From IMG/VR virus record IMGVR_UViG_3300033512_000218, positions 1 through 64,000 of that record: a stretch of DNA of 64,000 bases. One strand, 5' to 3'. How positions within the stretch are numbered: the first letter of the stretch is position 1; each line of letters starts with the position of its first letter. Below are positions 32,471 to 57,897 of this stretch, piece after piece. The position numbers were made by a program, and so were the translations under genes. The notes under the pieces were generated by a model. The model was not told the DNA's origin and did no database searches. It saw only the letters and a program-made list of their open reading frames with translations. This DNA is from a virus.

Positions 32471-32498
32471 AAAAATAGGACTTAGTTGTCCTATTTTT
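32471..32498. terminator. intrinsic terminator
   Basis: AAAAATAGGAC-loop-GTCCTATTTTT. Confidence 0.7.
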
Positions 32499-32559
32499 CT
32501 TTTTTACGTATTTATTTTCTTTTTTACGTATTTATTTTCTTTTTTACGTATTTATTTTC
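32495..32559. repeat. 20-bp tandem repeat x3 (TTTTCTTTTTTACGTATTTA)
   Basis: read directly from sequence. Confidence 0.9.
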
Positions 32560-32563
32560 CTTT

Positions 32564-33064
32564 TTATTTATTTATTCGACTTGGTTGAGAATTTTCATTA
32601 TCCTCAAACCCAATATTAATTATTTTAGTTTCTTCATAATTATATTTATTATTTTCTATAAATTGAAAATCTTTGTCCCAACTCCCAACGTTTAAATCAA
32701 CATACCAAGATACATCAAAATAATCAGTTTGGATATCAGACCTATCATAATGACCTTTGTATAATACACTAAATATTTTATCATATATATTTGCATATAA
32801 AAAATCTTTCATAAAATATTGGTTTATTGAAAAATTTGTTATTTTTCTTGTCAATACTTCAAGACGTTCATTATCATTATATTTATCTTTTAATAAACAA
32901 TTTCTATAATCTGTTATTAAATCAATTGGAGCTGATAAAATATCGACAACAATGGTTGAATAATGACGTCTTCTTATTGATAATTTCCAGCCATCTTTTG
33001 AAGGGAATAATTTTTTTATTTCACTTCTCATTTCATTTACTCTTTCAGTACTTATATATGCCAT
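32564..33064 (-). CDS. LPD29-like early protein
   Basis: IKKLFP...KLSIRR...YSTI.V and YDRSDIQTDYFDV. Confidence 0.55.
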   Translation of the reverse strand: MAYISTERVNEMRSEIKKLFPSKDGWKLSIRRRHYSTIVVDILSAPIDLITDYRNCLLKDKYNDNERLEVLTRKITNFSINQYFMKDFLYANIYDKIFSVLYKGHYDRSDIQTDYFDVSWYVDLNVGSWDKDFQFIENNKYNYEETKIINIGFEDNENSQPSRINK

Positions 33065-40600: not shown

Positions 40601-41748
40601 AAAGTATAGTAAAAACACAAAGATACAGATTAGAATATGGATTGGGATTATCAGAAGCATCAACTCGAAAAGTTGTTGTTGAAGATGGAAAGGTTTGGAT
40701 AGGTGCAAATGGGTTTTTATTAGATTCATTTAATTCAAATACAAATGAAATGTTTTTCTTATTTCATTCAAGTAATGTTTGGGATACTCCTTCATTAGAA
40801 ACAGACTATAATAATACCCAATATGATGATGGTACTGATTTAAAAACATTGGATGATGGTAAATATGCAGTAAATTTTATTTATAGAGGTATTGAAGTTG
40901 AAAATGAATGTTATTTTGTTTTAGGACAAGGCAATTATACATTATTAGAAGCTCAAAATAGTATTCCTCCTGCTAATCTTCCTCATATTATTACATCACA
41001 TACAATGTTAATTGGTAGAATTATTGTAAAAAAGGGAGAAAATACAGCGACACAAATAGATAGTATATTTGAAGCGGCTTTTAGATTATCACCAGGTATT
41101 AACCATAATGATACAAGTGGAATTCAAAATGCTCCAAATAGTGTAGTAGGAGAACATTATCATTTATCATCTGCTCAAGCAACTGTTGTAAGTAACACAT
41201 CTAATACAAATACAGGAGATGAAACAGCGGCAAGAATAGGAGCAATAGTAAATGGAGCAACTAATTATACAACTCCATTAGATGCAGATAAGATTGGAAT
41301 TTGGGATACTTTAAATAGTTTATATAAAGCAGTAACTTGGACTAATATAAAAGCAACATTAAAAACTTATTTTGATACTTTATATCGTAAATTAAGTTGG
41401 AATTATAGAGCATCTACAAATGCAAATAATATAACAACTGATAGAGATTTAAGTGATGGAAACATTGCAACAAATATATCTCCTTTTATAATACCAGTAA
41501 CAAGTTCCTTAAAAAGAATATCAGGATTTGCAAATACAACCTCATCAGCCACATCATGGGTGATTGATATTTTAAAAAACGGAACTTCAGTTGTAACATT
41601 GATAGTTACTTCTCCAACTCAAAAAGCAGTATCAACTGATTTAAATGTTAGTTTTTCTGCATTAGATGAGGTAAGAATAAGAGTAACAACGATAACAGGT
41701 GGAAATATTGACAGTCCTTCTGTAGATATTTACTTTTTAGAAAATTAA
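34699..41748 (+). CDS. giant tail fibre/tailspike-like protein with three beta-helix-like modules
   Basis: 2349 aa; three I.VAK.GG.F..I..A.N.ITD...N.Y.I.IG.G.F.E repeats; repeated TQYD.GT.L..L...Y...EAQ modules. Confidence 0.7.
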   Translation: MSEFLRPDEILNNVYQNGGINTFLRPDEILNLVYSESENALAVNIIGGGGTSNLSVFDTVSSAESTQTNSLIYVKETDTFYKYELNGSSYIVNDTSILNTLNAGNTRYIGVSGKYTEILSIEQLSTKELTGIPTQELSKFTINYNPTNRVLTLTRISDYTFFVQGKQFTKNSTIIMPAHNNTTGLYYYYFDTDGVLKMSLSMPDVFNSVAFVTYIYYNADLIDGFAGDERHGVIMDGDTHKLLHYTFGTQYKTGLNIDGYTLQSDSILDTVYNIEEGTIYDEDIQLTIPELTTDYTIFYKNGILGDWYWNDALSLPYSISNDNIQYNEYTGVTWQLTELNENKFFNSYVCATDIIDTRFKIVIVIGQYLYNTQTEAESRSFADLDLTKFPFTETLPIYQIVHKYDTTYSTTTGKSRFETVIQLFNNRKIVNNNWSIDKIKKYVDNKRDPKIINVAKNGGQFTIINEALNSITDNSMINPYVIKVGTGIYIEDSIIMKDYVSIIGSGEQITIIQALNTTQTIFTGATNCELSSMNITGATGSGGICIKVNNLASTNPFRMSNIYFGSNETQLNVTSTTGITICTLKNSYIGSSSIFTNGFKVDSINASQPSLLVVENFSYLDIIAPFLTTSLFNADGIGAQLVLSSVLTRSSGNTGTAMLIENGASLRILSGTFRGFANGIHCPATGTGQTIIANAINLECFSKDVLIENANTIGNLTGYTSYNKTSINDNCSFFIINKDLKVISVAKRGGDFTSIALALNAITDSTATNRYKVDIGPGIFIEPELTIPSYVSLVGSSINTTVIEPDTNDHNVINMNEMTEISFLTIENAGVGYSAVSSINSGNFTQLHKISIYNSDYGVYFKSTTIDSQLYLEYVDINGIYSEAITCISENGFESYINTENTYTFPDNLNIASNQVLVDGTNAIMRVGNAGVSNVIGNGGIGFLVTNGASLFLKGSSVSNCSKGIYLDTNGINPFIRMTGLTFNDNTINFDISNTTASGEYTGYTEYTKKSINSSNSFFITNKDSNIITVAKKGGDFDSITNAINSITDATDINQYIISIGPGSFIEDTIQMKEYISLSGSGYETIIEPSDSNNHIILGQDHSQISYITVNGCTNNSAIYYSANLSSPNDYFVIEQCLFGNNSTQIEIYSDENPTIIYAKSCELGGNFQFDTFAHIHNNPTHNAIASLRMFQLGSPGGVVAPYPNPFILCEGINADFSVNSCGLIGGGTGNCIQVRNGSQIRLSSVQIINFGTGILCENIGTAPLINATAVTFENCITDINIDHPGTNGSISCSADNSKVFIDENSTIGIQYNENSNDLIGTVTVGDIYQGTRHDRLLNLSKLTTNSSTLGLYSGGTLDVSYSGIDIIVNEGVGFLLNPTDFYIKEVNWITTELAIPDNNESYIYIDTNSDILYSSSLVDLEEYIVLGRVYKNNSNIIFIEETPVKINHYSNENEEYIRDIVGSIYSSGSIVSENISDRKLDITSGSYYYGTNNYLPSGGTNITFLHLYHNSGTWDYVYTDTINNTQYDNGTNLVNLTASYYSKHSLYISSEGLNENYFVIHSQLEYETLLEAQNGTIPTTPTWIKNGITLIASIIVQQGTSSIIEIIDLRPVFNGSASSSSEAVTSHSDLTNLDSDDHLQYLLATGSRVLSGNLDLGNNNITNVNLVDGIDVTSHKSRHDFNGSDPLLSDIALPISDSTNLEGVSNTKVSRYDHVHAHGNRIGGTLHAAVTTSVNGFMIASDKVLLNKLANTRIPISDTNYTITSATDVTVSYVTLTANRTITLPVATNLNQTIIILDELGNCSVDKYLKIVPNGSDTLNGFVYSLIVTSYSRVRLVSNGISNWSFTTEDIQYSTGTIKKPTYTDNNNGSITIGNEGIYNLHKDTTGLDNIYPYIVNGNSFVLTDLTTNYIVINYNSGTHVMQKITDVSLINETTIIPIYTIYREGLRLHTIDWDSLGLSLVNKIHQSIVKTQRYRLEYGLGLSEASTRKVVVEDGKVWIGANGFLLDSFNSNTNEMFFLFHSSNVWDTPSLETDYNNTQYDDGTDLKTLDDGKYAVNFIYRGIEVENECYFVLGQGNYTLLEAQNSIPPANLPHIITSHTMLIGRIIVKKGENTATQIDSIFEAAFRLSPGINHNDTSGIQNAPNSVVGEHYHLSSAQATVVSNTSNTNTGDETAARIGAIVNGATNYTTPLDADKIGIWDTLNSLYKAVTWTNIKATLKTYFDTLYRKLSWNYRASTNANNITTDRDLSDGNIATNISPFIIPVTSSLKRISGFANTTSSATSWVIDILKNGTSVVTLIVTSPTQKAVSTDLNVSFSALDEVRIRVTTITGGNIDSPSVDIYFLEN

Positions 41749-41761
41749 ATTATTAAACATT

Positions 41762-42217
41762 ATGAATAAAATTTCATTATCAACCACAGGAATTATTTCA
41801 TCAATCACTATTAATGATTTATATGCATCAATATTCACTCATCCTTCTATAAATTTAATTTTGGTAGAAGAAAATAGTCATAATTATCCTTATACATTAG
41901 ATGAAATAAAAAATAGTGATGATTTACAAACTGCAATAGATAATGGATACATTGTTTTAAAAGATGAAAATGATATAGAAATACCAATAATTAAACAAGT
42001 GGAGATTGAATTATATAATCCAATTATAAATAATTTTACTAATGCAAAACATAATCATAGTAATGATACAACCGGAGGGGTATTAGAGAATGTTACTGTT
42101 CCGATAAAAACAACATTGGAAAGAATATCTATGATTACACATGTAGGATTAATCGTATATGATTCAAATTATAAAAGTATTTTTTCATTTGATGGTGAAT
42201 CATGGATTGAAAATTAA
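41762..42217 (+). CDS. virion protein; N-terminus paralogous to 44024 ORF
   Basis: LSTTG.ISSITINDL.AS.F.HP...YPY..D.IKNS.D.QTA..NGYIVL.DEN. Confidence 0.7.
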   Translation: MNKISLSTTGIISSITINDLYASIFTHPSINLILVEENSHNYPYTLDEIKNSDDLQTAIDNGYIVLKDENDIEIPIIKQVEIELYNPIINNFTNAKHNHSNDTTGGVLENVTVPIKTTLERISMITHVGLIVYDSNYKSIFSFDGESWIEN

Positions 42218-42226
42218 AATAATAAG

Positions 42227-44008
42227 ATGGCTATAGATAAAGAAATAAAATTTAAAGGGACAAAAGCATATCAATATAATGCAAATGATAATACATGGTA
42301 TATATCAAAGAATATTCGACCGTTATGGTGGTTAAATATAGACGATAATTTGTCAATACAAAATAATTTAACTGTTCCTTTAAATGAATATTATTTTGGA
42401 AATGCTGGCACTGAAATTATACAAATTAAAACTATTATTACAAACAGAATATTAGTTCCAAGTACATCTAACATGACCATAGGAAATCCGAACATTCCTT
42501 GCATATGGCATACATTAGTACTCGGTGATATAATATCAATATCTGTAACAAATGCTGGATTTACTGCAAATTCATCGTATTATGTTACGTCAGTTAATCC
42601 AGGTGTTTCATTTCAATTGTCTTCATCATATACAAATACATCAAGAGTAATAAATCCAACATCTGCAACAATTGGATTGTTTTATAAAAAACAAGGAATT
42701 GCAATTTCCAATGCTTATATTACAGAAGGATATAGATCATTAACATTTGACCATGGAAATCATATTCAAGGCTCTTATCTTAGTGGCACTATACCTAACA
42801 ATAAAATATTAACTCAATGGGGCGTTCATATGTTTATAAAACCTTGGACAACAAACCAACCATTTCCTGTTGGAATTGCTCCAGAAAGAACTATTTTTCA
42901 CATTAAAGATTCTGTAAGTGGAAAATACATTAGAATATTTATTTCTACAACAAATTTAATGTCAGTTGATATTAATGGTAATCTACTTAATTTAGTAAAA
43001 GATTTATTTGCATCCAATTCATCAACAGCTGGATATGTTGTTGCTAAATACGATGGAACAAATTTAACATTACGTTCTTCTTCATTATTTTCAACACATT
43101 TTTCTGAAACATTATCAATTCCTGGATTAACATGGGAATTTAATAGTACAAATACTATTATAAGTATTGGAGCAAAAACAGATGGAACAACTGCATTATC
43201 AAAAATAAATATAGATAGTTTTAGATTTTATGATAGATATTTAACTGATGAAGAAGAAGTTGTTTTATATGGTAAAAACTATGGAAATGTATTTTCATCA
43301 TTTACTTCAACTGCTATGTATATGGATTATTTTAAATGGAGATGTGAAGAAACGAATGATACTCAACCAATGCAACAAACAGGATTTAATGGAACAATAA
43401 CTCCAGATAATGGAACTGTAAATTTAATAAGAAATGCAACAGGAACAGGAGTACTTATTAATCAATTAAATGAAAAAAATATTTGTTATGAATTTAATGA
43501 ATTATATAAAGGTTATTTATCATCTACAATAACTATACCTAATTTAAATGCTAATAGTGCTATAAGTATTGGAATGTGGTTTAAAGATACATCAACAACT
43601 ATTGATAATAGAAGATGGATTACTAATTCAACATTAAATAGCGGAATTGGATTAAAAATATTTAGTTTAGGACAAAGCAGTACAGGACAAAATATAATTC
43701 GTTTTAATAGTAATAATATTGAGAAATTGATTACAACAACCGATTGGAGAAATGTTTGGAATTATTGGACTATCGTTTTTGATTGTTATAAAAATATAGT
43801 TTTTTTATATAAAAACGGAATTTTATTAGATTCAATTACTCCAACAATATATACTCCTGTAGCAGGATTATTTATTGGAGGTAAAAATATTACAACCAAT
43901 ACAGAATATATTAATGGTTATATTAGAGATATTTCTATTAAACAATATCGAGTATCTGTCGGTGAAATGAAATTAACATATAATAACGGACATCCGTTAC
44001 AAACATAA
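42227..44008 (+). CDS. LamG/concanavalin-A-like domain virion protein
   Basis: IDSFRFYDRYLTDEE, ISIGMWFK, WNYWTIVFD, LYKNG, NGYIRD. Confidence 0.75.
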   Translation: MAIDKEIKFKGTKAYQYNANDNTWYISKNIRPLWWLNIDDNLSIQNNLTVPLNEYYFGNAGTEIIQIKTIITNRILVPSTSNMTIGNPNIPCIWHTLVLGDIISISVTNAGFTANSSYYVTSVNPGVSFQLSSSYTNTSRVINPTSATIGLFYKKQGIAISNAYITEGYRSLTFDHGNHIQGSYLSGTIPNNKILTQWGVHMFIKPWTTNQPFPVGIAPERTIFHIKDSVSGKYIRIFISTTNLMSVDINGNLLNLVKDLFASNSSTAGYVVAKYDGTNLTLRSSSLFSTHFSETLSIPGLTWEFNSTNTIISIGAKTDGTTALSKINIDSFRFYDRYLTDEEEVVLYGKNYGNVFSSFTSTAMYMDYFKWRCEETNDTQPMQQTGFNGTITPDNGTVNLIRNATGTGVLINQLNEKNICYEFNELYKGYLSSTITIPNLNANSAISIGMWFKDTSTTIDNRRWITNSTLNSGIGLKIFSLGQSSTGQNIIRFNSNNIEKLITTTDWRNVWNYWTIVFDCYKNIVFLYKNGILLDSITPTIYTPVAGLFIGGKNITTNTEYINGYIRDISIKQYRVSVGEMKLTYNNGHPLQT

Positions 44009-44023
44009 AAAATAAAAAAATAA

Positions 44024-47023
44024 ATGGCAAATCAAATTAAATTATCAACAACAGGAACAATATCATCAATAACAATTAATGATTTATTTGCTTCTAAGTT
44101 TGTTCATCCTATCATAGATATGATATTGTGCGATATAACAAATCCTGCGGCATATCCATATTCAAACGATGATATTAAAAACAGTATTGATATTCAAACA
44201 GCAGTTACAAATGGCTATATTGTTTTACGAGATGAAAATAATAATATTATTTCTGATGTTACAGAAAGAAATTTTAATATATGGTCACCTGATGTAGATT
44301 CAACATCATCATTAAAAATAACAAAAGCAGATGGAACTACTGAAATATTAACTGTAGACAGTATAAATTCTATTATTAAAACAAATAGCATTGGAAATTT
44401 AGATGGAGTAGTTGTTTTTAATTTGCAAGATAGACAATTTTTTGATTCTGTAAATAAACAATCATTATCAACACAAGATAGAACTTTAAATAATACATCA
44501 GGAATTCCTATTATTCAATGGGGAAGTGGATTAAATGTATTTGATGATAGTGGCAACACATTGTTTTTAATATATCCTGAACACCCCGTTAGCAAAATAT
44601 CCATCAATAGAGAAAATCCTGTTAATTGTTTGGAAGTTGGAATGGAAAGTGATAATGACACTAATTATATTAGTGCTATGTCTTCTTCTGATAAAACTCG
44701 TGGTTTTAGTATTGATGATACAAATGGATATAAATGGGCAAATTATGTATTCAAAGAAGAAGATGGTGATACACAATATTTTGCTTCTGGAAATTCACAA
44801 AGAGATATTTTAGTTATGCAAAGTGATGGAAGAATCGGGATAAATATTCCAACTATAATAAACAATCTTGAAATTGTTAGAATAGTACAAACATCAAGTA
44901 ATACATATGCCACTGTTACAACTGAATTAACTCATAATTTAACAAACTTATCAATTGTTAAAATTATAAATGCTACTAATTCTAAATTTAATGGAACATT
45001 TTCAGTTGGTAATGTTGTTGGATTAACATTTAGAATTAATGGAGTATCAGTTGGTGCAATAACAGAAGAACCTACAAATGCTCAAGTGATTCAAGAAACA
45101 AATATTCCTATTGATTTTACTATAATGCCTCAGTTTTTAGATGCAATATATAGTTTTAATAAATCTTTAGATGTCGGAGTTGGAACAGGATTCATTGATT
45201 TAACTGCAAATATGCGTACATCATTTGGAACTGCTGATGTTATATTGCCTATTGCAACAGGTAGCTATTTATATGTAGGTCAAAAATATACATGGAAATC
45301 GACTTCATTTAATATTACAACTGCAACCGTTGGTTCTACTGCTATTACAGTAGAATATTCAAGTGGAACTAATTCTTGGACAGCTTTAACAACCTCCTCA
45401 ACATCAGGAAATGGATTAGTAGATGGAACAAGTAGATTAACTAAAGACGGAAATATTTCATGGAATCTTTCAACATTCAAATACTTATGGACAAGTAGAG
45501 AAATTATTATCGAAACGACTCCTCGTTCAACTGAAGAATTATATTGGATTAGAATAAGTTTAACAGGAACTATTACTGTTGCACCAACTGCTCAATCAAT
45601 TAGTAATAATGGAGGGAATAGAGTTGGAGTATACGCACAATCAGGAGATATAAATCCATTTTTTAAATTAGATAGTTTAGGTAGAGTAGGATTTTTACCA
45701 CCCGAATTAGAATCTCAATATAGTTTAGGTTCTTTAACTGGTCTTACAACGTCTAAATTTGAAGTTATTGCTGAAGATGGAGCAAGAAGTGATTTTATTT
45801 ATTACTTAGCAAATAGTACATCTGCTTCTCATCCTGCAATTGTATTAGCTAAAAGTGCTGGTACAATAGCTTCTAAAACACCTATAACAAATGGAAGTGA
45901 TATTGGAGCTGTATATGGATTTGGTTATGACGGAACAACTTTTAGAGAAAGCTGTAAAATTTTATTTGAAGCTGATGCTGGACATGGTGCAGGAGTTGTA
46001 TCAGGTAAAATGTCTTTATGGACAACAATAGGAACATCTGCAAACGAAAGAATGACAATAAAAAGCAGTGGTAATATCGGTATTGGAATAACAAGTCCTA
46101 CTGCAACATTACATTTAAAAGCAGGTACTGCAACAGCAAATACATCACCATTAAAATTAACAACAGGAGTTGCTTTAACAAATCCAGAAAATGGTTCATT
46201 AGAATATCATACTTCTCATTTATATTTTACAATTGGAACAACAAGATACCAATTAGACCAACCCACTATATTAGGTACTGTTACTTCGGGCGTTTGGAAT
46301 GGAACTACTATAGCAATTGCAAATGGTGGTACAAATTCTACAACAACCTTAAATAATGGTAGAGTAATGATTAGTGCAGGAGATTCAATTGTAGAGAATT
46401 CCGCATTAACATCATCAGCTTTAGTTTTGGGAGGTATTTCTTTATCTTCATTATCATTGGGAACTGCTAATCAAATAGTAGGAATGAATAATGCTGGTAC
46501 AGGAAATGAATATAAAACATTATCAGTAGGTACAAATGGAACAGATTTTAACATTGTATTAAATTCTGCAAATAGTATTGTTTTAAATTTACCAGATGCT
46601 TCTACTTCTAATAGAGGAGTTGTTACAACAGGAATCCAATCTTTTAGGGGACAAAAAACATTTACTAATTCAGTTATTTTTAATCAAAATATAGTAAATA
46701 ACGGAATTATAACAGTATCCATAACAGCATCTCAAAATAATTATAATCCTGTTGGATTATCAACTTGTAATGTAATAAGAATATCATCAAGTGCATCATA
46801 TAACATAACGGGTTTAACGGCTCAAGAATCTGGTAGAACTATTATGATAATTAATATAGGTACTCAAGCAATAACATTAGTAACTGAAAGTGCTTCATCT
46901 ACAGAATCAAATAGATTTGCATCACCATCAAATCAATTAGGAGCTAAAGAAAATGCTATTTTATGGTATGATATAACTTCAGCAAGATGGCGTGTAATAG
47001 CAAATAGTGTAAGACAATCATAA
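44024..47023 (+). CDS. tail fibre protein
   Basis: T/G/S-rich; ERMTIKSSGNIGIGITSP..TLH and GTVTSGVWNGTTIAIANGGT. Confidence 0.75.
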   Translation: MANQIKLSTTGTISSITINDLFASKFVHPIIDMILCDITNPAAYPYSNDDIKNSIDIQTAVTNGYIVLRDENNNIISDVTERNFNIWSPDVDSTSSLKITKADGTTEILTVDSINSIIKTNSIGNLDGVVVFNLQDRQFFDSVNKQSLSTQDRTLNNTSGIPIIQWGSGLNVFDDSGNTLFLIYPEHPVSKISINRENPVNCLEVGMESDNDTNYISAMSSSDKTRGFSIDDTNGYKWANYVFKEEDGDTQYFASGNSQRDILVMQSDGRIGINIPTIINNLEIVRIVQTSSNTYATVTTELTHNLTNLSIVKIINATNSKFNGTFSVGNVVGLTFRINGVSVGAITEEPTNAQVIQETNIPIDFTIMPQFLDAIYSFNKSLDVGVGTGFIDLTANMRTSFGTADVILPIATGSYLYVGQKYTWKSTSFNITTATVGSTAITVEYSSGTNSWTALTTSSTSGNGLVDGTSRLTKDGNISWNLSTFKYLWTSREIIIETTPRSTEELYWIRISLTGTITVAPTAQSISNNGGNRVGVYAQSGDINPFFKLDSLGRVGFLPPELESQYSLGSLTGLTTSKFEVIAEDGARSDFIYYLANSTSASHPAIVLAKSAGTIASKTPITNGSDIGAVYGFGYDGTTFRESCKILFEADAGHGAGVVSGKMSLWTTIGTSANERMTIKSSGNIGIGITSPTATLHLKAGTATANTSPLKLTTGVALTNPENGSLEYHTSHLYFTIGTTRYQLDQPTILGTVTSGVWNGTTIAIANGGTNSTTTLNNGRVMISAGDSIVENSALTSSALVLGGISLSSLSLGTANQIVGMNNAGTGNEYKTLSVGTNGTDFNIVLNSANSIVLNLPDASTSNRGVVTTGIQSFRGQKTFTNSVIFNQNIVNNGIITVSITASQNNYNPVGLSTCNVIRISSSASYNITGLTAQESGRTIMIINIGTQAITLVTESASSTESNRFASPSNQLGAKENAILWYDITSARWRVIANSVRQS

Positions 47024-49476: not shown

Positions 49477-50418
49477 ATGATTAATACGATACTTCAACAA
49501 AATTCAATTGGTTTTTTATTGGCAGACGAAAACAAAAAAATTATATCATTAAATAAATATATAACTAATTTATTTAATATAAATAATTCTGAATTTATTG
49601 GAGCGGATGTTACTATTATGTTTAAAATAGATAAAAATAATCTACAAAAATTAAATATAATAGGATTTGTATCTTTTGATAGTTATGTAAATAATTATGA
49701 TAAATTAATAAATATTACAGTTATTAAAAATGACAAATTTTATTATGGTATTATATTGGATAAAACAAATGAAAATAATCTACATAATGAAATAATTAAA
49801 ATAAATAATTTATTTAAAAATAATATAAGTGAAAATGAAAGATATAAAACATTATTAAACAGTATAATTAATGCTTTGGCTCATAATTTTAGAACAAATA
49901 TTTATACTATAAAAAAATTATCAAATACTGATTCCATTAAATATTCAGATAATATTATTACTCTTATAGATGATATATTAAAATATTATAATGTATTTAA
50001 TCATGATGTATCAATATCAGATGTAAAATTAATTAACTTAATACATCCTAATACACTAATTGAAACAAATATAGATGATTTAATATATATAAAATCAGAT
50101 ACAGTATTATTAAATATTATATTTAATGAAATTATTGATAATGCTATAAAATTCGGTAATAACAATATAATAAAAATTATATATACTGATTTAGGATTTT
50201 ATCATAAAATAAGTATAAAAGATAATGGAATAGGATTTAATATAAAATATAAAAACGAAATATTTAAATTGTTTAGTAAATTAAATACAACTTTTACTGG
50301 TACAGGACTTGGATTAGCTATTGTAAAATTATGTATTGATAAACTAATAGGTAATATTAATGTAAACAGTCAAATAAATATAGGTAGTGAATTTATTATT
50401 TTACTTGATAAACAATAA
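49477..50418 (+). CDS. soluble sensor histidine kinase (PAS-like + HisKA + HATPase_c)
   Basis: H-box LAHNFRT, N-box IIDNAIKF, G1 DNGIG, F-box IFKLF, G2 GTGLGLAI. Confidence 0.88.
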   Translation: MINTILQQNSIGFLLADENKKIISLNKYITNLFNINNSEFIGADVTIMFKIDKNNLQKLNIIGFVSFDSYVNNYDKLINITVIKNDKFYYGIILDKTNENNLHNEIIKINNLFKNNISENERYKTLLNSIINALAHNFRTNIYTIKKLSNTDSIKYSDNIITLIDDILKYYNVFNHDVSISDVKLINLIHPNTLIETNIDDLIYIKSDTVLLNIIFNEIIDNAIKFGNNNIIKIIYTDLGFYHKISIKDNGIGFNIKYKNEIFKLFSKLNTTFTGTGLGLAIVKLCIDKLIGNINVNSQINIGSEFIILLDKQ

Positions 50419-50814: not shown

Positions 50815-51024
50815 ATGATAGTTGATATTAAATGCCATAAATGTAAAAAAGAATTTGAAGCAGAATGGAATGTGAGAGGAAAATGTCCTAATTGTGAAAA
50901 CAAATATGATTGGACATGGGATGGTGAGTTGTGGAGTGATTTTGAAACTTGTTTTCCAATATTTGAAAGTGAAACGGAAGGTGTTAAAAACTCTTTTTTA
51001 CTTGTAATAGATTGGGATTTTTAA
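50815..51024 (+). CDS. small zinc-ribbon protein
   Basis: CHKC and CPNC. Confidence 0.65.
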   Translation: MIVDIKCHKCKKEFEAEWNVRGKCPNCENKYDWTWDGELWSDFETCFPIFESETEGVKNSFLLVIDWDF

Positions 51025-51026
51025 AT

Positions 51027-51092
51027 TTTAACATTTATTAAGATAATTAAATTTGTATTTTTACTTTATTTATATTATCTTTATAATATAAT
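51027..51092 (+). promoter_or_regulatory. early promoter repeat upstream of cassette array
   Basis: consensus with TATCTTTA variant. Confidence 0.7.
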
Positions 51093-51210
51093 TTAAAATG
51101 AATATTAACCAACAACTGATATTAGGACAGAAACAATGGCTTATATTTGTTGTAAGCAAATAATCACTAAATTGTATGTTATGTACTTTTATCATAATAC
51201 ATTAATCAAA

Positions 51211-51447
51211 ATGGAAAATATAAAAATGAGTTTTAAAGATGCCCCTGTCGGTGCAAGATTTAAGTATCCAAATGATACAAGCGGAAATATTTGGGTTAAA
51301 ATTAATTCATATCCACAAAGTAGATTTGAAAGCGGATTAGGATTGATTTGTAAATGGGAAGGAAATATAAAAAGTTATCAATCTTTTTGCTCGTTTAGTG
51401 ATGAAAATAATGGAATTTCATTTGAAACTGAAATCGAGTTATTATAG
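51211..51447 (+). CDS. cassette 1 hypothetical protein
   Basis: MENIKMSFKDAPVGARF...; stop just before site 1. Confidence 0.65.
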   Translation: MENIKMSFKDAPVGARFKYPNDTSGNIWVKINSYPQSRFESGLGLICKWEGNIKSYQSFCSFSDENNGISFETEIELL

Positions 51448-51448
51448 T

Positions 51449-51581
51449 TGCTAACGGTTGCAAATAAACACAGTAAAAGATATGAAAGAACAAATTTTAG
51501 AAATAGCAGAAAAACTTAGATTAGAACTAATAACTGAATACGAAGCACAAAACCTTTTATTTGGTTTATTTAGTGTTATAC
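51449..51581. repeat. attC-like site 1
   Basis: TGCTAAC..aaataaac..agtaaaag / cttttatt..gtttattt..GTTATAC. Confidence 0.7.
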
Positions 51582-51691
51582 AACGAAGTGAACAGTTGGT
51601 TGCTTTTGTAAAATGGTTAGAAGCTAATTCAGACCACTCAATTGATAGAGGTTGGATAGAAGAATATATTGAAGCAACCAATTGTGTATAA
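51482..51691 (+). CDS. cassette 2 hypothetical protein (starts in hairpin loop)
   Basis: MKEQILEIAEK...; stop TAA lies inside GTATAAC. Confidence 0.7.
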   Translation: MKEQILEIAEKLRLELITEYEAQNLLFGLFSVIQRSEQLVAFVKWLEANSDHSIDRGWIEEYIEATNCV

Positions 51692-51807
51692 CGGCTGAGT
51701 ATTGGCGTTGTTGCCATCATAAACGATTATTAATAACACTAAATTATAAAATTATGACAAAAGTTTCAGAAAACCACGAAGGCAATAACGCTAATACTTT
51801 GTTAGCC
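51686..51807. repeat. attC-like site 2
   Basis: GTATAAC ggctg agtattggcgttgttgcc / ggcaataacgctaatact tt GTTAGCC (16/18 plus 2 G.T). Confidence 0.85.
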
Positions 51808-51978
51808 ACAGTTATTCCTCAATCAAAAGAAGAGTTGTTAGAATGTATTCAAAATTTGATGGGTGTATTTGACACACCAGTTTCAAGAAGAGCAATAAAG
51901 GGTGAATTTGCCGATGAAGTTCGTAAGATAGGTCGTCAAATTTTGGAAAGTAATGGTAAATCAATGTACGATATATAA
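51754..51978 (+). CDS. cassette 3 hypothetical protein (starts in hairpin loop)
   Basis: MTKVSENHEGNNANTLLATVIP... Confidence 0.7.
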   Translation: MTKVSENHEGNNANTLLATVIPQSKEELLECIQNLMGVFDTPVSRRAIKGEFADEVRKIGRQILESNGKSMYDI

Positions 51979-51982
51979 TTGT

Positions 51983-52074
51983 GGCTAACGTATCGTGTAT
52001 GAGCAGTGGCACTTGTACACACTTTCAAATTAGCTACAACGATTATGTGCCATTGCTTATACACGGTGTTAGTG
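51983..52074. repeat. attC-like site 3
   Basis: GGCTAAC gtat cgtgtatgagcagtggcac / gtgccattgcttatacacg gt GTTAGTG. Confidence 0.88.
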
Positions 52075-52109
52075 ACAGTACTTTTTTTAATAATCTAATA
52101 ATCAATTAT

Positions 52110-52664
52110 ATGAAAGCTGAAAAACAAATAATTTACGATGACGAAAATGCAGCCAGATTCGTTGAAAATATCAAAGGTTGGGTTGATATTAATAATCAAT
52201 TTTATGGGAATAATTCAGATTCTGAACATATGGCACGTTGGTCAAGTTGCACACATAAAAAATGTAAATGCGGAAAGCTAATAACTAAAGGATGGACGAA
52301 ATGCGATGAATGTAGAACTAACTCCGAAATTGAAAGATATAACCAACTTACATTTAAAGAATATAATGGTGATATAGTTTATTCACATTATGCTGACCGA
52401 TACTTTATGGATTCTGATGAAATAGAAGATTATTGCTCTGAGGAAGAAATTGAGACTAAAGATTTGAGGCTTGTATTTTGCGAACCAAATAAATTTAGCC
52501 AAATATATAGTGACTATTGGGAAGATGTATTGCAAGAAGATTCAGAAGGCGAATTACCTACGAAGTTACAAGAGGCTTTAGATAATTTAAATAAAATCAT
52601 TTCTGAAATGCCTCCAGCGAGTTATTGCCCAAGTAAAACACGAACTGAATATCGTAGCGTGTAG
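52110..52664 (+). CDS. cassette 4 hypothetical Cys-containing phage protein
   Basis: MKAEKQIIYDDENAA...EHMARWSSCTHKKCKCG...CDEC. Confidence 0.75.
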   Translation: MKAEKQIIYDDENAARFVENIKGWVDINNQFYGNNSDSEHMARWSSCTHKKCKCGKLITKGWTKCDECRTNSEIERYNQLTFKEYNGDIVYSHYADRYFMDSDEIEDYCSEEEIETKDLRLVFCEPNKFSQIYSDYWEDVLQEDSEGELPTKLQEALDNLNKIISEMPPASYCPSKTRTEYRSV

Positions 52665-52670
52665 TATTGG

Positions 52671-52765
52671 CACTAACGGTTGGGTGTATGAAACGTAACC
52701 TAACTACAAACTTTAGTATTAACCACTGAACTATAATAGGTTATGTTTTATACACCTTGTTATAT
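52671..52765. repeat. attC-like site 4
   Basis: CACTAAC ggttg ggtgtatgaaacgtaaccta / taggttatgttttatacacc tt GTTATAT. Confidence 0.88.
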
Positions 52766-52862
52766 GCAGTGCGGACTTATAGTGGAAATGTTGATACGAG
52801 AGATGAACCTTTTTGTTTTATTTTTTGTGCGGTGGGAAAGTAATTAACTTAATAACTAAAAT

Positions 52863-53435
52863 ATGAAATACGAAATAATATACGCTGATCCAGCTTGGGA
52901 ATACAATACAAAGGAATGTTTGGCTAAAACATCAATACTTAATGGAGAATTGAATACCCATTATAGCACAATGACATTGAAAGACTTAAAAGCATTAGAC
53001 GTGCAAAGTATTTCAAATAAAAATTGTATGCTGTTTTTGTGGGTTGTAAGCCCGATGTTAAAAGAAGGTATTGAAGTGATGGAAGCGTGGGGCTTTAAAT
53101 ATGCCACAATAGCTTTTATATGGCACAAGCAAAGAACAAACCCTGGACATTATACAATGAGTGAATGTGAAATTTGCTTGGTAGGGAAGCGTGGCACAAT
53201 ACCAACTCCAAGAGGAGCAAGGAATGTAAGGCAATTTTTATCTGAAATGCGAGGCAAACATTCTGCTAAACCTAATGAAATAAGAACGAGAATTGATACA
53301 ATGTTTCCAACTCAAAATAAAGTAGAATTATTTGCAAGGCAGAATGTTTTAGGATGGGATGCTTGGGGTAACGAATGCGAAAACTCTATAACTATTGGAG
53401 GGGAGGAAAAAAAAATTAAAACAAATTGCGTATAA
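52863..53435 (+). CDS. cassette 5: MT-A70 family adenine methyltransferase
   Basis: IIYADPAW, HYSTM, LFLW, WGFKY, HSAKP, ELFAR, GWDAWGNE; stop inside GTATAAC. Confidence 0.92.
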   Translation: MKYEIIYADPAWEYNTKECLAKTSILNGELNTHYSTMTLKDLKALDVQSISNKNCMLFLWVVSPMLKEGIEVMEAWGFKYATIAFIWHKQRTNPGHYTMSECEICLVGKRGTIPTPRGARNVRQFLSEMRGKHSAKPNEIRTRIDTMFPTQNKVELFARQNVLGWDAWGNECENSITIGGEEKKIKTNCV

Positions 53436-53500
53436 CGAATGGTGCTATGAGCAGGTTTGTGTTGCGCCTGCGGCAAACTTGCTTATAGCACGTGTTACTG
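53430..53500. repeat. attC-like site 5
   Basis: GTATAAC gaatg gtgctatgagcaggtttg / caaacttgcttatagcac gt GTTACTG. Confidence 0.88.
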
Positions 53501-53568
53501 GCTGGCTCGGTTAATTAACCACTAAACTCAAATCGAAGCATTAAACAAAAGAATTTAAAAAAAGAGGG

Positions 53569-54330
53569 ATGGAAAAAAATAAAATATATAACGAAAATTG
53601 CCTTGAAACAATGGCTAAAATGCCTGATAAGTTTGTGGACTTAACGGTTACTTCACCGCCTTATAATATGCGAACACGTATAAGAAACGGACAATATACC
53701 ACAAGAGAGAAAAGCGAACATTTTAGCAAAAAGTATAAGTATTTTGACGATGCTTTACCAATAAATGATTTTTACGAATTTCATAGCAGCGTATTGACTG
53801 AACTATTGAGAGTATCAAAAATTGTTTGCTACAACTTTCAAATAGTGACAGGAAGCAAAGAAGCGTTTTTTAAAATCATTGGCGACTTTAACAAGGATAT
53901 TAAGGATATTATCATTTGGGATAAAGGAAGCGGACAGCCTGCAATGCACGGAATGGTTTTAAATAGCTGCTATGAAATGGTATTGATATTAGAAGATGAT
54001 AAAAGAGCAGGGAGAGCAATACAAAATGCTAAATTCAAAAGAGGTGAAATGAATAACATTTTGAGAATCGGCAGAGGCAAAAAAGTATCTGATGTTCACG
54101 GTGCAATTTTTCCAGAACAACTACCATTTGATTTGATAAACGCTTTTTCAGAAAAAGAAGCATTGATTTACGACCCTTTTATGGGAAGTGGAACTACTGG
54201 ATTAGTAGCAAGTAAATTAGGTAGAAACTATATTGGAAGTGAAATAACAGAAGAATATTGTCAAATAGCTGAAAATCGTATTAAAGAGTGCGGTGGGCTT
54301 TTTTTGAACTCTTTTGAACCGAAATGTTAA
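53569..54330 (+). CDS. cassette 6: N4-cytosine/N6-adenine DNA methyltransferase (beta class)
   Basis: VTSPPYN, H.A.FP, YDPFMGSGTT, GRNYIGSEI. Confidence 0.92.
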   Translation: MEKNKIYNENCLETMAKMPDKFVDLTVTSPPYNMRTRIRNGQYTTREKSEHFSKKYKYFDDALPINDFYEFHSSVLTELLRVSKIVCYNFQIVTGSKEAFFKIIGDFNKDIKDIIIWDKGSGQPAMHGMVLNSCYEMVLILEDDKRAGRAIQNAKFKRGEMNNILRIGRGKKVSDVHGAIFPEQLPFDLINAFSEKEALIYDPFMGSGTTGLVASKLGRNYIGSEITEEYCQIAENRIKECGGLFLNSFEPKC

Positions 54331-54355
54331 ATCGCAGCACAAATGTAGAGCTTGC

Positions 54356-54450
54356 CAGTAACGTTGGTGCTATGAGCAGGTTTGCCTTGCAGAAATGTTC
54401 AAATTTAGCACTAATGTTATTGGCAAACTTGCTTATAGCACGTGTTATGT
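54356..54450. repeat. attC-like site 6
   Basis: CAGTAAC gttg gtgctatgagcaggtttgcc / ggcaaacttgcttatagcac gt GTTATGT; arms same as site 5. Confidence 0.88.
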
Positions 54451-54483
54451 GCCGTTTTTATTCACGAATTTAAAATTAGTAAG

Positions 54484-54996
54484 ATGAAAAAATATGATGT
54501 AATTTATGCCGACCCTGCTTGGCGATATGACTTTAGCAAAAGTAATAGCAGGGAAATTGAAAACCAATACCCAACAATGACCATAGATGAAATATGTGGA
54601 TTAAAAGTACCTGCAAAAGATAACGCTGTGCTTTATATGTGGGCAACTGCACCAAAGCTATTGGAAGCAATAAAAGTATTAAATGCGTGGGGCTTTGAAT
54701 ATAAAACACAAGCAGTTTGGGATAAGGAAATTATCGGAATGGGTTATTGGTTCAGAGGACAACACGAAATATTAATAGTTGCTACAAAGGGTAAATTTTC
54801 ACCACCCGAACAACCATTAAGAATAAGTAGTGTGATTAAGGAAAGGAGAACCAAGCATAGCAAGAAACCGATTTATGTAAGAGATATGATTGAAAAATGG
54901 TTTCCCGATTCTGAACGATTAGAAATGTTTGCCCGAACAAGCGGTGAAAATTGGGATGTTTGGGGAAATGAAGTTGAGAGTAGTGTCGCTCTTTAA
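54484..54996 (+). CDS. cassette 7: MT-A70 family adenine methyltransferase
   Basis: VIYADPAW, YPTM, LYMWAT, WGFEYKT, HSKKP, EMFAR, WGNE. Confidence 0.92.
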   Translation: MKKYDVIYADPAWRYDFSKSNSREIENQYPTMTIDEICGLKVPAKDNAVLYMWATAPKLLEAIKVLNAWGFEYKTQAVWDKEIIGMGYWFRGQHEILIVATKGKFSPPEQPLRISSVIKERRTKHSKKPIYVRDMIEKWFPDSERLEMFARTSGENWDVWGNEVESSVAL

Positions 54997-55002
54997 AATG
55001 GC

Positions 55003-55096
55003 ACATAACGGTTGCGTGTATATTTCAGGTTTGCTTGTACGAACTTTGAATTATGCACAAATGCTGATGCAAACTTGAATATACACGTTGTTAGTA
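55003..55096. repeat. attC-like site 7
   Basis: ACATAAC ggttg cgtgtatatttcaggtttgc / gcaaacttgaatatacacg tt GTTAGTA. Confidence 0.85.
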
Positions 55097-55167
55097 ACAG
55101 TAGCATACGACAATGTTAATTTGAAACGCTACACTTTTTATTTTAAATTTTTAAGGAGGGATTTTTT

Positions 55168-56148
55168 ATGAATATTTTGAGTTTATTTGATGGTATAAGT
55201 TGTGGGCAAATAGCGTTGGAACGTGCTAATATTAAAGTTGATAAATATTACGCAAGTGAAATTGATGCCAATGCTATTAAAGTTACGAAACACAACTACC
55301 CAAATACAATACATATTGGAAGTGTGAATGATATTGATTTTAGTAAATACCAAGATATTGATATTTTAATTGGTGGTAGCCCCTGCCAAGACTTATCACG
55401 TTGTAATTTAGAAAATAAGGGATTAGAAGGAGAACGATCTAAATTATTTTTTAAATACATAGAATCGTTAAAAATTACTAAGCCTAAATATTATGTATTT
55501 GAAAATGTTGGAAGTATGACCAATGAGAATATGGAAACCATAAGTGAATATTTCGGACATAAACCAATTTGTATAAACTCAAATTTAGTTTCTCCACAAA
55601 GCAGAGAAAGATATTATTGGACAAATATACCAAACGTAATACCACCAATAGATAAAAACATTTTGGTTAAGAATATAATTGAAAAAACCGTACCCGAAAA
55701 GTATTACTTAAAAATGGATTATGCTTATGTACCAAAGGAAACAAAACATAATTCAAAAAGCGGATTACAATTTGTTTGTGGTATTATTAGCAAAAAGAAA
55801 TGGCTTGATGATGGGAAAGGAAATTCACGTAATTTTTCACAAGGAAATAGAGTTTATTCGATAAATGGAAAATCTTGTACTATAAATGCAAATGCTGGAG
55901 GATTAGGTGGTAAAAGTGGATTATATTATTTAGAAGATGGAAAGGAATTTAGCAAAAGCAATATAAGAAGATTAACACCATTAGAAACAGAACGATTACA
56001 AACAATACCTGACAACTATACCGATATAATAAACGAAACAAATAGGTACAAATGTATTGGCAATGGTTGGACGGTAGATGTAATTGCACATATTCTTTCT
56101 TTTATAAATGGTTTTGAAAAAACCACAGATCGTGGGCAAAAAATTTAA
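55168..56148 (+). CDS. cassette 8: DNA cytosine-C5 methyltransferase
   Basis: SLFDGISCG, GGSPCQ, FENV, QSRERYYW, GNGW. Confidence 0.93.
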   Translation: MNILSLFDGISCGQIALERANIKVDKYYASEIDANAIKVTKHNYPNTIHIGSVNDIDFSKYQDIDILIGGSPCQDLSRCNLENKGLEGERSKLFFKYIESLKITKPKYYVFENVGSMTNENMETISEYFGHKPICINSNLVSPQSRERYYWTNIPNVIPPIDKNILVKNIIEKTVPEKYYLKMDYAYVPKETKHNSKSGLQFVCGIISKKKWLDDGKGNSRNFSQGNRVYSINGKSCTINANAGGLGGKSGLYYLEDGKEFSKSNIRRLTPLETERLQTIPDNYTDIINETNRYKCIGNGWTVDVIAHILSFINGFEKTTDRGQKI

Positions 56149-56196
56149 AATAAAAAATTATTATGCACGAACCTTGCTACGAAGAAAGGCTATTGT

Positions 56197-56241
56197 TACT
56201 AACTATTATATATAAACAAGTGTATTTAATTTATTGATTAT
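56197..56241 (-). other. array-terminal site (candidate attI equivalent)
   Basis: TAACTATTATATATAAA-N10-TAAtTTATTGAtTAT, repeated with identical spacing at 57841-57882. Confidence 0.6.
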
Positions 56242-56306
56242 GAATACAAAAGACAAAACAAATCTTGAAATTTTCGAAGATATTTCTTGAGTTGAAAATT
56301 ATAAAT

Positions 56307-56372
56307 TTTAACATTTATTAACACAAATTAATTTTGATTTAGTTAATAAATGTTTTATCTTTGTGATATAAT
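56307..56372 (+). promoter_or_regulatory. conserved early promoter repeat
   Basis: same consensus. Confidence 0.85.
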
Positions 56373-56388
56373 TTAAAAAATTAAACAA

Positions 56389-56820
56389 ATGAAACATTTT
56401 ATTACATCATTAAGAGCAACCTCAAAAGAAGAAACATTAAATCGTTTTAAAGAAACAAATGATTATAATGAAAATAAAGTATATTCTGCTAATCTCAATT
56501 GGTATACACAGGATTGGGATATATACGAATATGATTTAAAAGAAGGTGATTATATTGCATTTGAATATGAATATGAAATAGGTGACCCTGAAATAATAGT
56601 TGATAATATTTCATTTGTATATGAAGATAGAGTAATCGTACACTTTTTATATGGTTATAAATCTGAAACTTGTACTATTTTAAAAAAAGATATTTTAGCA
56701 ATAGGAAATAAACTAAATGGAACAACAAAATTATTAGGTTGGACTGGCTTATTTGATATTGTAAATGAAACAGATTTTTTAATTAAAAATATAGAATATG
56801 AAACAAAATCTAATAGTTAA
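56389..56820 (+). CDS. hypothetical protein
   Basis: ORF after promoter repeat. Confidence 0.65.
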   Translation: MKHFITSLRATSKEETLNRFKETNDYNENKVYSANLNWYTQDWDIYEYDLKEGDYIAFEYEYEIGDPEIIVDNISFVYEDRVIVHFLYGYKSETCTILKKDILAIGNKLNGTTKLLGWTGLFDIVNETDFLIKNIEYETKSNS

Positions 56821-57067: not shown

Positions 57068-57390
57068 TTATTTTATTAAAGTTGATACTGTTTCTTCTTC
57101 TTCTTCAGTAAAATATGATAATAAATATTTAATTAATTCAATTGATTTTTTGGCGTATTTTTATTTAGTTTTCTTTTTAAATTATCTAATCTATCTGCTA
57201 TTTTAATAATTATTAATTTATTTCTTGTATCAGAATCGAGTTGTGGTAATATTTGAGTTAAATGATGTAAAGGTTCATTATCAATATTATCAGATGTTTT
57301 GGTTTCACTACTTATATATCTGATTATTTTTTTAGCTTTATCATATATATTAAGTTTATCGATATCTCCTCCTTGTTCTATATAATCATG
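57068..57390 (-). pseudogene. truncated, frameshifted RelA/SpoT-type HD hydrolase
   Basis: manual translation HDYIEQG...IIIKIADRLDNL; no start codon; 5' part missing where the solo cassette begins. Confidence 0.7.
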
Positions 57391-57396
57391 AAATGT

Positions 57397-57489
57397 TTAT
57401 AGCAGTTTGCAATATGAAACGGTTGCATTATAAAACGTTTCAATTTTAGTAATAGCTTGACAGCAACAGTTTTATATTGCTTGTTAGGT
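57397..57489. repeat. attC-like site of solo cassette (left core AGC instead of AAC)
   Basis: TTATAGC agttt gcaatatgaaacggttgc / gcaacagttttatattgc tt GTTAGGT. Confidence 0.78.
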
Positions 57490-57504
57490 ATAATAATTTT
57501 TATT

Positions 57505-57843
57505 ATGGGAATGTACACACAATTTATTATCGAATGCAAGTTAAAAGAAGAAACTCCTTACAAAATTATCGAATGTTTAGAAGATATGATAAACGACATT
57601 GATAATGATTTATTTACTTATAATCGAAATCCTTTAAACAATTATTGTGAAAGCAATAAATATTTTAAATCATTTAAAGATTTAGTGTTAAAAGCACATG
57701 GGGATATAAAAAACTATCAGACTGATATTGATAGGTTTACTGATTTTATAAAACCTTATGTGGAAATAGGGTTTTTAGAAAATAATTCTTTTGCTAAATC
57801 ATTATACGAAGGATATGATGAGTGGACGTATTATTGTACCTAA
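57505..57843 (+). CDS. solo cassette hypothetical protein
   Basis: MGMYTQFII...IKNY..DI..F.DFIKPY; bracketed by GTTAGGTATAATAA / TTATTGTACCTAAC; stop inside the AAC core. Confidence 0.75.
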   Translation: MGMYTQFIIECKLKEETPYKIIECLEDMINDIDNDLFTYNRNPLNNYCESNKYFKSFKDLVLKAHGDIKNYQTDIDRFTDFIKPYVEIGFLENNSFAKSLYEGYDEWTYYCT

Positions 57844-57882
57844 CTATTATATATAAAAATCTCAACCTAAGTTATTGACTAT
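57838..57882 (-). other. second array-terminal site (candidate attI equivalent)
   Basis: 17/17 and 13/15 identity to the two boxes at 56200-56241. Confidence 0.6.
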
Positions 57883-57897
57883 ATTTAAAATTATATT

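Follow-up and report, generated by a model that had tools for sequence, protein, structure and literature searches.

A probable array of integron-like gene cassettes with the remnant of an Xer-like recombinase gene in a phage genome

What kind of system assembled a row of single genes separated by palindromic sites in the genome of a phage? The question is raised by a stretch of 64,000 nucleotides (the window: positions 1 to 64,000 of the IMG/VR virus record IMGVR_UViG_3300033512_000218, which comprises 139,610 bases with 22% G+C and is estimated to be 60% complete), in which an earlier reading made from the letters alone (the sequence-only reading) had placed an integron-like gene-cassette array at 51178-56241. 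Integrons are the textbook bacterial collectors of single genes and are defined by the integrase IntI, a special domain of which is held responsible for reading the folded single-stranded attC site. Our analysis indicates that the array (array A, 51452-56203) very probably consists of seven cassettes of an integron-like site-specific recombination system of Bacteroidota phages, which relies on an Xer-like tyrosine recombinase and has lost the gene of this enzyme here.

Seven hairpin sites (S1 to S7; Table 1) are located at 51452-55093 between co-oriented genes, and every gene of the array is encoded on the + strand. Each site runs from a left core TAAC to a right core GTTA, and a last TAAC, at 56200, is hairpin-less. 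All seven sites were found where they had been located before, although the 3′ halves of S1 and S2 do not simply separate genes but fall inside the small open reading frames (ORFs) following each of them. Eight genes had been assigned to the array. Seven of them can be regarded as cassettes (a to g), whereas the first one (51136-51447) may not be a cassette: it has no Pfam or PHROG match, the covariance model described below found no hairpin upstream of it and its G+C content (27%) is between those of the flank and the array, so its status is uncertain. As had been noticed, the TAAC core contains the stop codon of two array genes, whose ORFs end at 51691 and 53435. The cargo includes two MT-A70, one N4/N6 and one C5 DNA methyltransferase, which most likely methylate the phage DNA against host restriction, and homologous methyltransferase cassettes are present in many other arrays. 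The three small ORFs of array A gave no family match in Pfam or PHROG.

The GTT end preceding each gene is complementary to the AAC end following the same gene and not to the AAC end of its own site, in agreement with the sequence-only reading. Over 11 nt, the right core of a site and the left core of the next one share 5, 10, 9, 7, 9, 10 and 10 Watson-Crick matches (sum 60), versus a sum of 27 for same-site pairing over the 11 nt outside the cores, and the observed assignment of cores is the single best among all 40,320 possible ones. The right core of S7, GTTAGTAACAGTAGC, pairs at 14 of 15 positions with GCTATTGTTACTAAC at 56189-56203.

Inner stems of 15-23 bp were found at six sites of array A. 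The structural scan of the 139.6-kb record detected long stems only at the array A sites, and the stems in shuffled sequence reached 12 bp at most. To build the covariance model R1, a step which had been proposed, six window sites were aligned with 36 sites of other contigs (42 in all). In the consensus site, a core stem of 5 pairs (TAACG/TGTTA) is followed by an asymmetric internal loop (4-5 nt versus 1 nt) and a stem of 19 pairs, and compensatory changes occur at 17 of the 24 consensus pairs. Two G.T pairs are conserved in 41 of the 42 sites, and no conserved bulge or extrahelical base is found in them. The absence of regular extrahelical bases, which had been claimed, was thus confirmed, the two near-invariant G.T pairs being present instead. 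The asymmetry of the spacers, given as 5 and 2 nt, was also confirmed, but their lengths are 4-5 nt and 1 nt once the conserved G.T pair is counted. With model R1, eight sites were recognized in the window, each on the strand of the genes and with a score of 41-91 bits; two of them were outside the training set. One of these two is S1, which is looser than the other sites, as described before, yet scored 41.2 bits (E 5e-6). The non-Watson-Crick positions of the stems are G.T in 118 cases, C.A in 15 and A.C in 7, and the site (coding) strand folds better in 57 of the 65 informative sites, the opposite strand in 8.

Two length classes of sites can be distinguished, of about 85-90 nt and about 115-127 nt, and the hairpin loops carry a common conserved motif, about CACAAACTTTCAAATTAGCACAAA (e.g. 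at 52015-52040 and 54386-54412 of the window). The interpretation of this motif as a Bacteroidota −7 promoter box on the opposite strand was dropped, since its spacing and letters do not fit.

Comparisons with other loci defined the unit which moves. When the array was compared with other loci by blastn, the blocks of similarity started exactly at the left TAAC at 54359 (in at least 13 loci), 51986 and 53433 and continued past the hairpin as far as the leader of the gene that follows. The S3 hairpin is 85-95% identical in at least 10 other contigs, with similarity beginning at TAAC, cassette e is 96% identical to locus L072 from TAAC onwards, and S2 exhibits 82% identity to L015 (2608-2724) and 79.5% to the huge phage LR756500.1. 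When the MT-A70 cassette f was compared with L095, L080, L066, L002 and L032, nothing similar was found to the left of TAAC and near identity to the right of it. On the 3′ side, the cassette ceases to resemble the other loci at 55009, where the C of the following TAAC is located, and the shared 3′ end ...GTAGTGTCGCTCTTTAAAATGGCACATAAC is present in all aligned loci except L066 and is followed by unrelated sequence. The S6 hairpin with the right core and the 5′ leader is common to L095, L080, L066 and L008, none of which resembles the window to the left of TAAC. Cassettes thus change neighbours at the AAC/GTT boundaries: the similarity is bounded by TAAC, the neighbours are unrelated, and a fixed order of the genes was not observed. 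Among near-identical hairpins in different contigs, 7 pairs (and 15 partial ones) kept the right flank and differed in the left one, and no pair kept the left flank while differing in the right one. The mobile unit is the segment from TAA/C to TAA/C, with the hairpin upstream of its own gene, because the right flank stays with the hairpin and the left one alone never does. Since the hairpin travels with the downstream gene, the cassette genes point towards the recombinase, opposite to the orientation in classical integrons. TAAC is followed by G in 41 of 42 sites but by T where the array ends, and the exchange can thus be placed within TAAC or at its last base.

In L080 (2972-3700), the hairpin, the right core, the leader and the last ~35 nt of the window's MT-A70 cassette enclose a different gene. 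In L066 (11772-12500), the hairpin, right core and leader are as in the window at 54359-55009, and the 3′ end did not align. It may be that one gene can be substituted for another within a cassette 'chassis' which is itself conserved.

The terminal, attI-like end of array A links the sites to a recombinase. Its sequence starting with TATTATATATAAACAAGTG is identical at 22 of 24 positions to the sequence preceding the recombinase gene in L019, and the 17-mer TAACTATTATATATAAA occurs exactly in L005/L121, 75 nt before the recombinase start. The attI-like 19-mer consensus was found in 52 viral contigs; a recombinase ORF follows on the same strand at +40 to +85 nt in 18 of them, hairpins are present just upstream in 21, and both hairpins and the recombinase ORF in 13. 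PF00589 was matched in 9 of the first 25 array-bearing records searched. In 6 of the 25 (L008/L119, L019/L120, L005/L121, L041/L124, L061/L122 and L095/L126) the array terminates in a hairpin-less TAAC, and an ORF of 266-298 amino acids (aa) with the same orientation as the sites comes immediately after it. The linkage of a tyrosine recombinase to the site family, on which the sequence-only reading had staked its proposal, was therefore found both in these records and in the contigs with the 19-mer.

The recombinases match best the XerA model NF040815 (171-206 bits, under its cut-off of 220). With the integron-integrase model TIGR02249 they reached 155-159 bits (cut-off 265), in two stretches which skip model positions about 180-238, and they were under the cut-off of NF011946 as well. 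The L121 recombinase aligns end to end with Pyrococcus XerA (4A8E), whereas it has no counterpart for residues 218-265 of the Vibrio integrase VchIntIA (2A3V). The catalytic residues R, H-x-x-R, H and Y are present. At least 6,876 proteins match the family at E ≤ 1e-20; the best 120 of them are mostly 265-269 aa long, are named in their sources only as XerD-type and come from contigs of up to 327 kb. The term 'non-canonical' used previously for the system was thus apt, considering the Xer-like recombinase without the IntI insertion, the G.T pairs and the hairpin associated with the downstream gene.

In array A, a decayed start of such a gene follows the attI-like end. Its ATG at 56240 lies 40 nt after the TAAC start, as in L285, L278, L266 and L269, and the translated stub MNTKDKTNLEIFEDIS aligns with the N-terminus of the L285 recombinase, MNIKSKSTLEKFEKVLRFKNY. 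The stub comprises about 16-23 decayed codons, and the promoter element at 56292-56378 stands in place of the remainder. As the stub at +40 resembles the L285 N-terminus and is followed by a stop codon and the promoter repeat, the recombinase gene has evidently been deleted at array A, its first 16-23 codons being left. A similar stub of 27 codons, resembling a recombinase N-terminus, was found in L266 (from a 78-kb contig), and L269 (from a 325-kb contig) carries hairpins and the attI-like element without a recombinase, an unrelated 72-aa ORF being located at +40. Joining the left flank of S1 (51435-51455) with the attI-like half (56203-56215) of array A gives TATTATAG-TTGCTAA-CTATTATA, in which inverted arms match at 7 of 8 positions around a 7-nt centre ending at TAA/C. 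This joined sequence may represent the ancestral simple core site; it is suggestive in array A only, and a conserved or palindromic left attI half is absent at the far ends of 14 other arrays.

Several points weigh against our interpretation. The PF00589 search of the 139.6-kb record revealed no tyrosine recombinase, and tblastn with a family recombinase gave nothing significant beyond the stubs, so that the activity of the system in this phage is unproven; the record is also only about 60% complete. In 78 pairs of near-identical hairpins both flanks are different, and the link of the hairpin to the downstream gene is drawn from a minority of pairs and from the anatomy of the array ends. Neither a circular cassette nor a pair of near-identical genomes differing by one cassette has been shown for this phage. 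No close relatives were found in the viral contig collection via the flanking proteins 49477-50418 and 56389-56820, and the former gave no match in tblastn against GenBank phages; because the flanking genes have no close relatives in viral collections, cassette presence and absence cannot be compared within the same phage. The strand used and the cut site are proposed by analogy with integrons. Moreover, the loci were gathered with a hairpin-arm pattern, which biases the hairpin types seen.

This pattern matched at least 118 IMG/VR contigs, and the structural scan of these contigs yielded at least 174 sites, many of which form arrays of 4-10 with end-to-end complementarity. The family is found mainly in IMG/VR viral contigs and cultured flavobacterial phages, and its members include the cultured Cellulophaga phage phi18:3 (L030) and the 462-kb uncultured phage LR756500.1, in which at least 12 sites were counted. 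Most of the pattern matches listed for viral contigs are true sites, whereas 11 true sites were recognized among the 120 matches listed for bacterial and archaeal genomes (596 Gb), the rest being mostly due to chance. Each of the true bacterial-genome sites with a known record title is in a Bacteroidota metagenome-assembled genome or a small contig.

Array A might be a fragment of an ordinary bacterial integron taken from the host, i.e. a cluster of attC sites lacking an integrase (CALIN), with canonical attC sites served by the host IntI. The TAAC/GTTA cores fit RYYYAAC/GTTRRRY, and seven sites without PF00589 agree loosely with the CALIN definition (at least two attC-type sites, no integrase), although they differ from canonical attC sites. 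Qi et al. 2023 (PMC9892861) classified two sites of Polaribacter phage P12002L as a CALIN with methyltransferase cassettes, treated them as ordinary attC sites with 'divergent' directions and named no phage recombinase. In that study, IntI1 recombined P12002L attC2, whereas P12002L_attC1 gave no recombinants with IntI1; P12002L_attC1 was predicted with HattCI, and the figure legend gives HattCI and INFERNAL for attC2 only (PMC9892861). According to our analysis, P12002L_attC1 (L130 29998-30066) is a short member of the phage site family (27.5 bits) located between methyltransferase genes. The attC2 site corresponds to the GCCTAAC junction at the array terminus, taken from the other strand, and this accounts for the divergent directions. 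In contrast to the two sites of the paper, the P12002L genome (L130) contains about eight model matches in two arrays, 29998-32705 and 38025-39255, on the − strand. The arrays surround four methyltransferase genes and a Mom-like gene, all their sites are on the gene strand, and no tyrosine recombinase is encoded in this complete genome. The site family (attC1) and the orphan DNA methyltransferase cargo are thus shared by P12002L and the phage studied here. Origin from a host CALIN is nevertheless unlikely. The true hairpin member, attC1, was the one which failed with IntI1, and the recombinases adjoining the arrays have no IntI insertion and score under the TIGR02249 and NF011946 cut-offs. The hairpin goes with the downstream gene, the genes face the recombinase and regular extrahelical bases are absent. 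True sites are few among the matches in bacterial and archaeal genomes, in contrast to the viral ones, and complete integrons are rare in Bacteroidetes according to IntegronFinder 2.0.

Alternatively, the hairpins could be regulatory or structural repeats (terminators, RNA processing sites or elements like PeSL, i.e. a promoter with a short stem-loop), the shuffling being a result of general homologous recombination. The sites do lie between co-oriented genes, their G.T pairs would be G.U in mRNA, hairpin types are common to unrelated cassettes, and T4-type phages reportedly shuffle small genes at PeSL repeats. In the PeSL cassettes of these phages, small accessory genes are bounded by repeated stem-loops and shuffled among relatives, and the PeSL acts via homologous recombination. 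However, homologous recombination leaves unexplained both the complementary gene ends with non-complementary site flanks and the hairpin-less TAAC with the attI-like end at a fixed distance of 40 nt from the recombinase start. Unlike the PeSL cassettes, the arrays have AAC/GTT cores, end-to-end complementarity and a linked recombinase, and the real promoter repeat of the phage is a separate element. The terminator scan remained at background (2 terminator-like sites versus 2.4 expected) with no T-run after the stems, and the Rfam scan of the sites gave no match above noise. We therefore consider this explanation very unlikely; an RNA-level role of the G.U pairs is conceivable, but it would not account for the cassette logic.

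A third possibility is that the genes are very small transposon-like elements, bounded by terminal inverted repeats of 11-15 bp (GTTAnnnn...nnnnTAAC), which an enzyme other than the tyrosine recombinase inserted beside existing hairpins. The outer repeats formally are terminal inverted repeats, and both flanks differ for many near-identical hairpins (78 pairs). This view is hardly credible, however, since wherever a single flank was preserved it was the right one, together with the hairpin (7 pairs and 15 partial ones versus 0), the Xer-like recombinase occurs at a fixed offset in many arrays, and no transposase or HUH gene was noticed beside the arrays, no search aimed at them having been made.

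The integron-like system with an Xer-like recombinase, which we favour, shares several traits with integrons: tandem one-gene cassettes, an imperfect palindromic site with AAC/GTT cores, complementary ends of the cassette which form the full site only in the circle, an attI-like end beside the tyrosine recombinase gene where the arrays grow and the newest cassette would be positioned, hairpin types common to unrelated cassettes, as with Vibrio repeats, and the common occurrence of recombinase-less arrays. Unlike integrons, it has a recombinase of 266-298 aa which is XerA-like end to end and lacks the IntI-specific insertion, and its hairpin is upstream of the gene with the genes facing the recombinase, whereas the integron attC is downstream and integron cassettes are read away from attI/intI. 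Further differences are the outer complementary repeats of 11-15 nt instead of 7, the inner stem of 17-23 bp with two near-invariant G.T pairs replacing the extrahelical bases, the asymmetric internal loop of 4-5 nt and 1 nt, and the location of the elements in phages. The system is thus integron-like in its working, but it lacks the IntI domain and the extrahelical bases, and the position of its site relative to the gene is not that of attC.

With Xer/dif systems, the arrays share an Xer-like recombinase (best matches XerA NF040815 and PDB 4A8E), and Xer enzymes are able to act on a folded single-stranded hairpin in the case of CTX-phi. Unlike in Xer/dif, the sites are hairpins of 65-130 nt, the enzyme is encoded beside the array and is not the host chromosome-dimer resolvase, and many one-gene units are arranged in tandem. 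No 28-bp dif-like site (11-bp arms, 6-bp centre) was noticed in the sequences inspected, no dif-pattern search having been made. The phage cassette system is widespread and seems not to have been described before; our literature search, which revealed no link of such sites to an Xer-like phage recombinase, was incomplete, and an earlier description is possible.

A cassette consists, in this order, of the C of TAAC, a 4-5-nt spacer, the imperfect hairpin with its stem of 17-23 bp, GTTA with about 11 cassette-specific bases, the leader, the gene, the complement of these 11 bases and TAA. Each cassette thus carries both complementary ends. Once joined in the free circle, the ends are expected to pair, which would extend the hairpin to a single long folded structure, as in the integron attC. 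The small Xer-like tyrosine recombinase would exchange one strand within TAAC between this folded site and the attI-like partner site, TAAC/TATTATATATAAAC..., located 40 nt before its own start codon, and new cassettes would thus enter beside the recombinase gene. The coding strand is the likely substrate, because the conserved G.T pairs make it the better folder. The arrays of this record, with the recombinase gene deleted at array A and at a third array described below, may now be frozen or served in trans.

On balance, we lean towards the view that Bacteroidota phages own an integron-like capture system, separate in origin or long diverged. Its minimal Xer-type recombinase, lacking the domain deemed essential for the recognition of folded attC DNA, would insert and excise cassettes of one gene each, folded as hairpins of the coding strand, at a site directly preceding the recombinase gene. 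By this route, phages would exchange anti-restriction methyltransferases and further genes directed against host defence, and stub arrays would be served in trans at co-infection. The cassette logic known from integrons is here associated with phages and a plain Xer-like enzyme, and the order of hairpin and gene is reversed. If the proposed chemistry is true, folded-hairpin cassette recombination needs no IntI domain. It would then follow that phages, even strictly lytic and very large ones, have a platform of their own for gene exchange, on which counter-defence genes such as orphan DNA methyltransferases circulate as cassettes, and phage 'XerD' genes and 'CALINs' would be misread in annotation. 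The window contributes a well-preserved recombinase-less case: the genome bears three arrays, four consecutive cassettes encode methyltransferases, and a stub of the lost gene accompanies the attI-like site.

Table 1 Features of arrays A and B and their surroundings (window coordinates)
Feature	Position	Strand	Details
Promoter element 5′ of array A	51012-51098	+	87-nt repeat, second copy at 56292-56378
Boundary gene	51136-51447	+	103-aa ORF; in-frame ATG at 51211 would give 78 aa
Site S1	51452-51578	+	Degenerate hairpin at far end of array A; TAAC 51452, GTTA 51575; arms 51462-79 and 51554-71
Cassette a	51455-51691	+	ORF 51482-51691 (69 aa), start in loop, stop inside TAAC
Site S2	51689-51804	+	TAAC 51689, GTTA 51801; 22-bp stem; covariance model 71 bits
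Cassette b	51692-51988	+	ORF 51754-51978 (74 aa)
Site S3	51986-52071	+	TAAC 51986, GTTA 52068; covariance model 91.5 bits
Cassette c	51989-52676	+	ORF 52110-52664 (184 aa), phrog_11053, E 1e-43
Site S4	52674-52762	+	TAAC 52674, GTTA 52759; covariance model 90.2 bits
Cassette d	52677-53435	+	MT-A70 adenine DNA methyltransferase 52863-53435, PF05063 E 2e-23, stop inside TAAC
Site S5	53433-53497	+	Short loop; TAAC 53433, GTTA 53494; covariance model 66 bits
Cassette e	53436-54361	+	N4/N6 DNA methyltransferase 53569-54330, PF01555 E 6e-33
Site S6	54359-54447	+	TAAC 54359, GTTA 54444; covariance model 91 bits
Cassette f	54362-55008	+	MT-A70 methyltransferase 54484-54996, PF05063 E 7e-23
Site S7	55006-55093	+	TAAC 55006, GTTA 55090; covariance model 77.8 bits
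Cassette g	55009-56202	+	Adjoins attI-like end; C5 cytosine DNA methyltransferase 55168-56148, PF00145 E 2e-42
attI-like end of array A	56200-56245	+	Hairpin-less TAAC, then TATTATATATAAACAAGTG...TTTATTGATT
Decayed 5′ stub of Xer-like recombinase gene	56240-56310	+	Reads MNTKDKTNLEIFEDIS*VENY
Array B hairpin site	57400-57486	+	Left core TAGC; covariance model 48.8 bits, E 1.5e-7, outside training set
Array B cassette gene	57505-57843	+	112 aa; phrog_4334 N-terminal match E 2e-13; stop inside TAAC
Array B attI-like end	57841-57885	+	Exact 17-mer TAACTATTATATATAAA; promoter element next at 57898

Two more arrays exist outside the coordinates originally given (51178-56241). Array B, the site of which was recognized by model R1 at 57390-57496, holds one cassette (57400-57844), the end of which, TATTATTGTACCTAAC, pairs at 14 of 16 positions with the right core GTTAGGTATAATAATT. 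The third array, with two cassettes, is located beyond the window at about 73839-74849 of the record (L131 10039-11049). Its terminus consists of the attI-like 17-mer known from arrays A and B, together with another stub of a recombinase gene, MNTKGKSTLEIFENNLRVKK.

The G+C content of array A (51.4-56.2 kb) is 33%, compared with 22% for the genome and about 20% for the flanks, which bears out the visibly raised G+C of the array. The 87-nt direct repeats around the array were considered as borders of a mobile unit, and this was rejected: they are copies of an ordinary phage promoter element, and the one at 51012-51098 is context outside the cassette system. The element of about 90 nt has the form TTTAACATTTATTAACA...TTTGTATTT...TATCTTTGTnnTATAAT followed by ATG, with TTTG between TTTAACATTTATTAACA and TATCTTTGTnnTATAAT. 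At least 20 copies, each with an ATG after it, are present in the record, at 51027, 56307, 57898 and at least 17 other places, and the element looks like the standard early promoter module of the phage. A Bacteroidota host is likely, because the promoter repeat has the Bacteroidota-type boxes TTTG and TAnnTTTG. Every array in the record is located at the end of a transcription unit, directly before the next copy of the promoter element.

Elsewhere in the window, a 2,349-aa ORF without a Pfam match is followed by a 593-aa ORF with a Laminin_G_3 domain and a 999-aa ORF (34699-47023). The G+C content of this region is raised as well (26-33%), and the large ORFs are probably virion or tail genes. 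The phage also encodes a T4 Rnl1-type RNA ligase (16512-17762) and an SNF2/HARP-type helicase (29887-31854).

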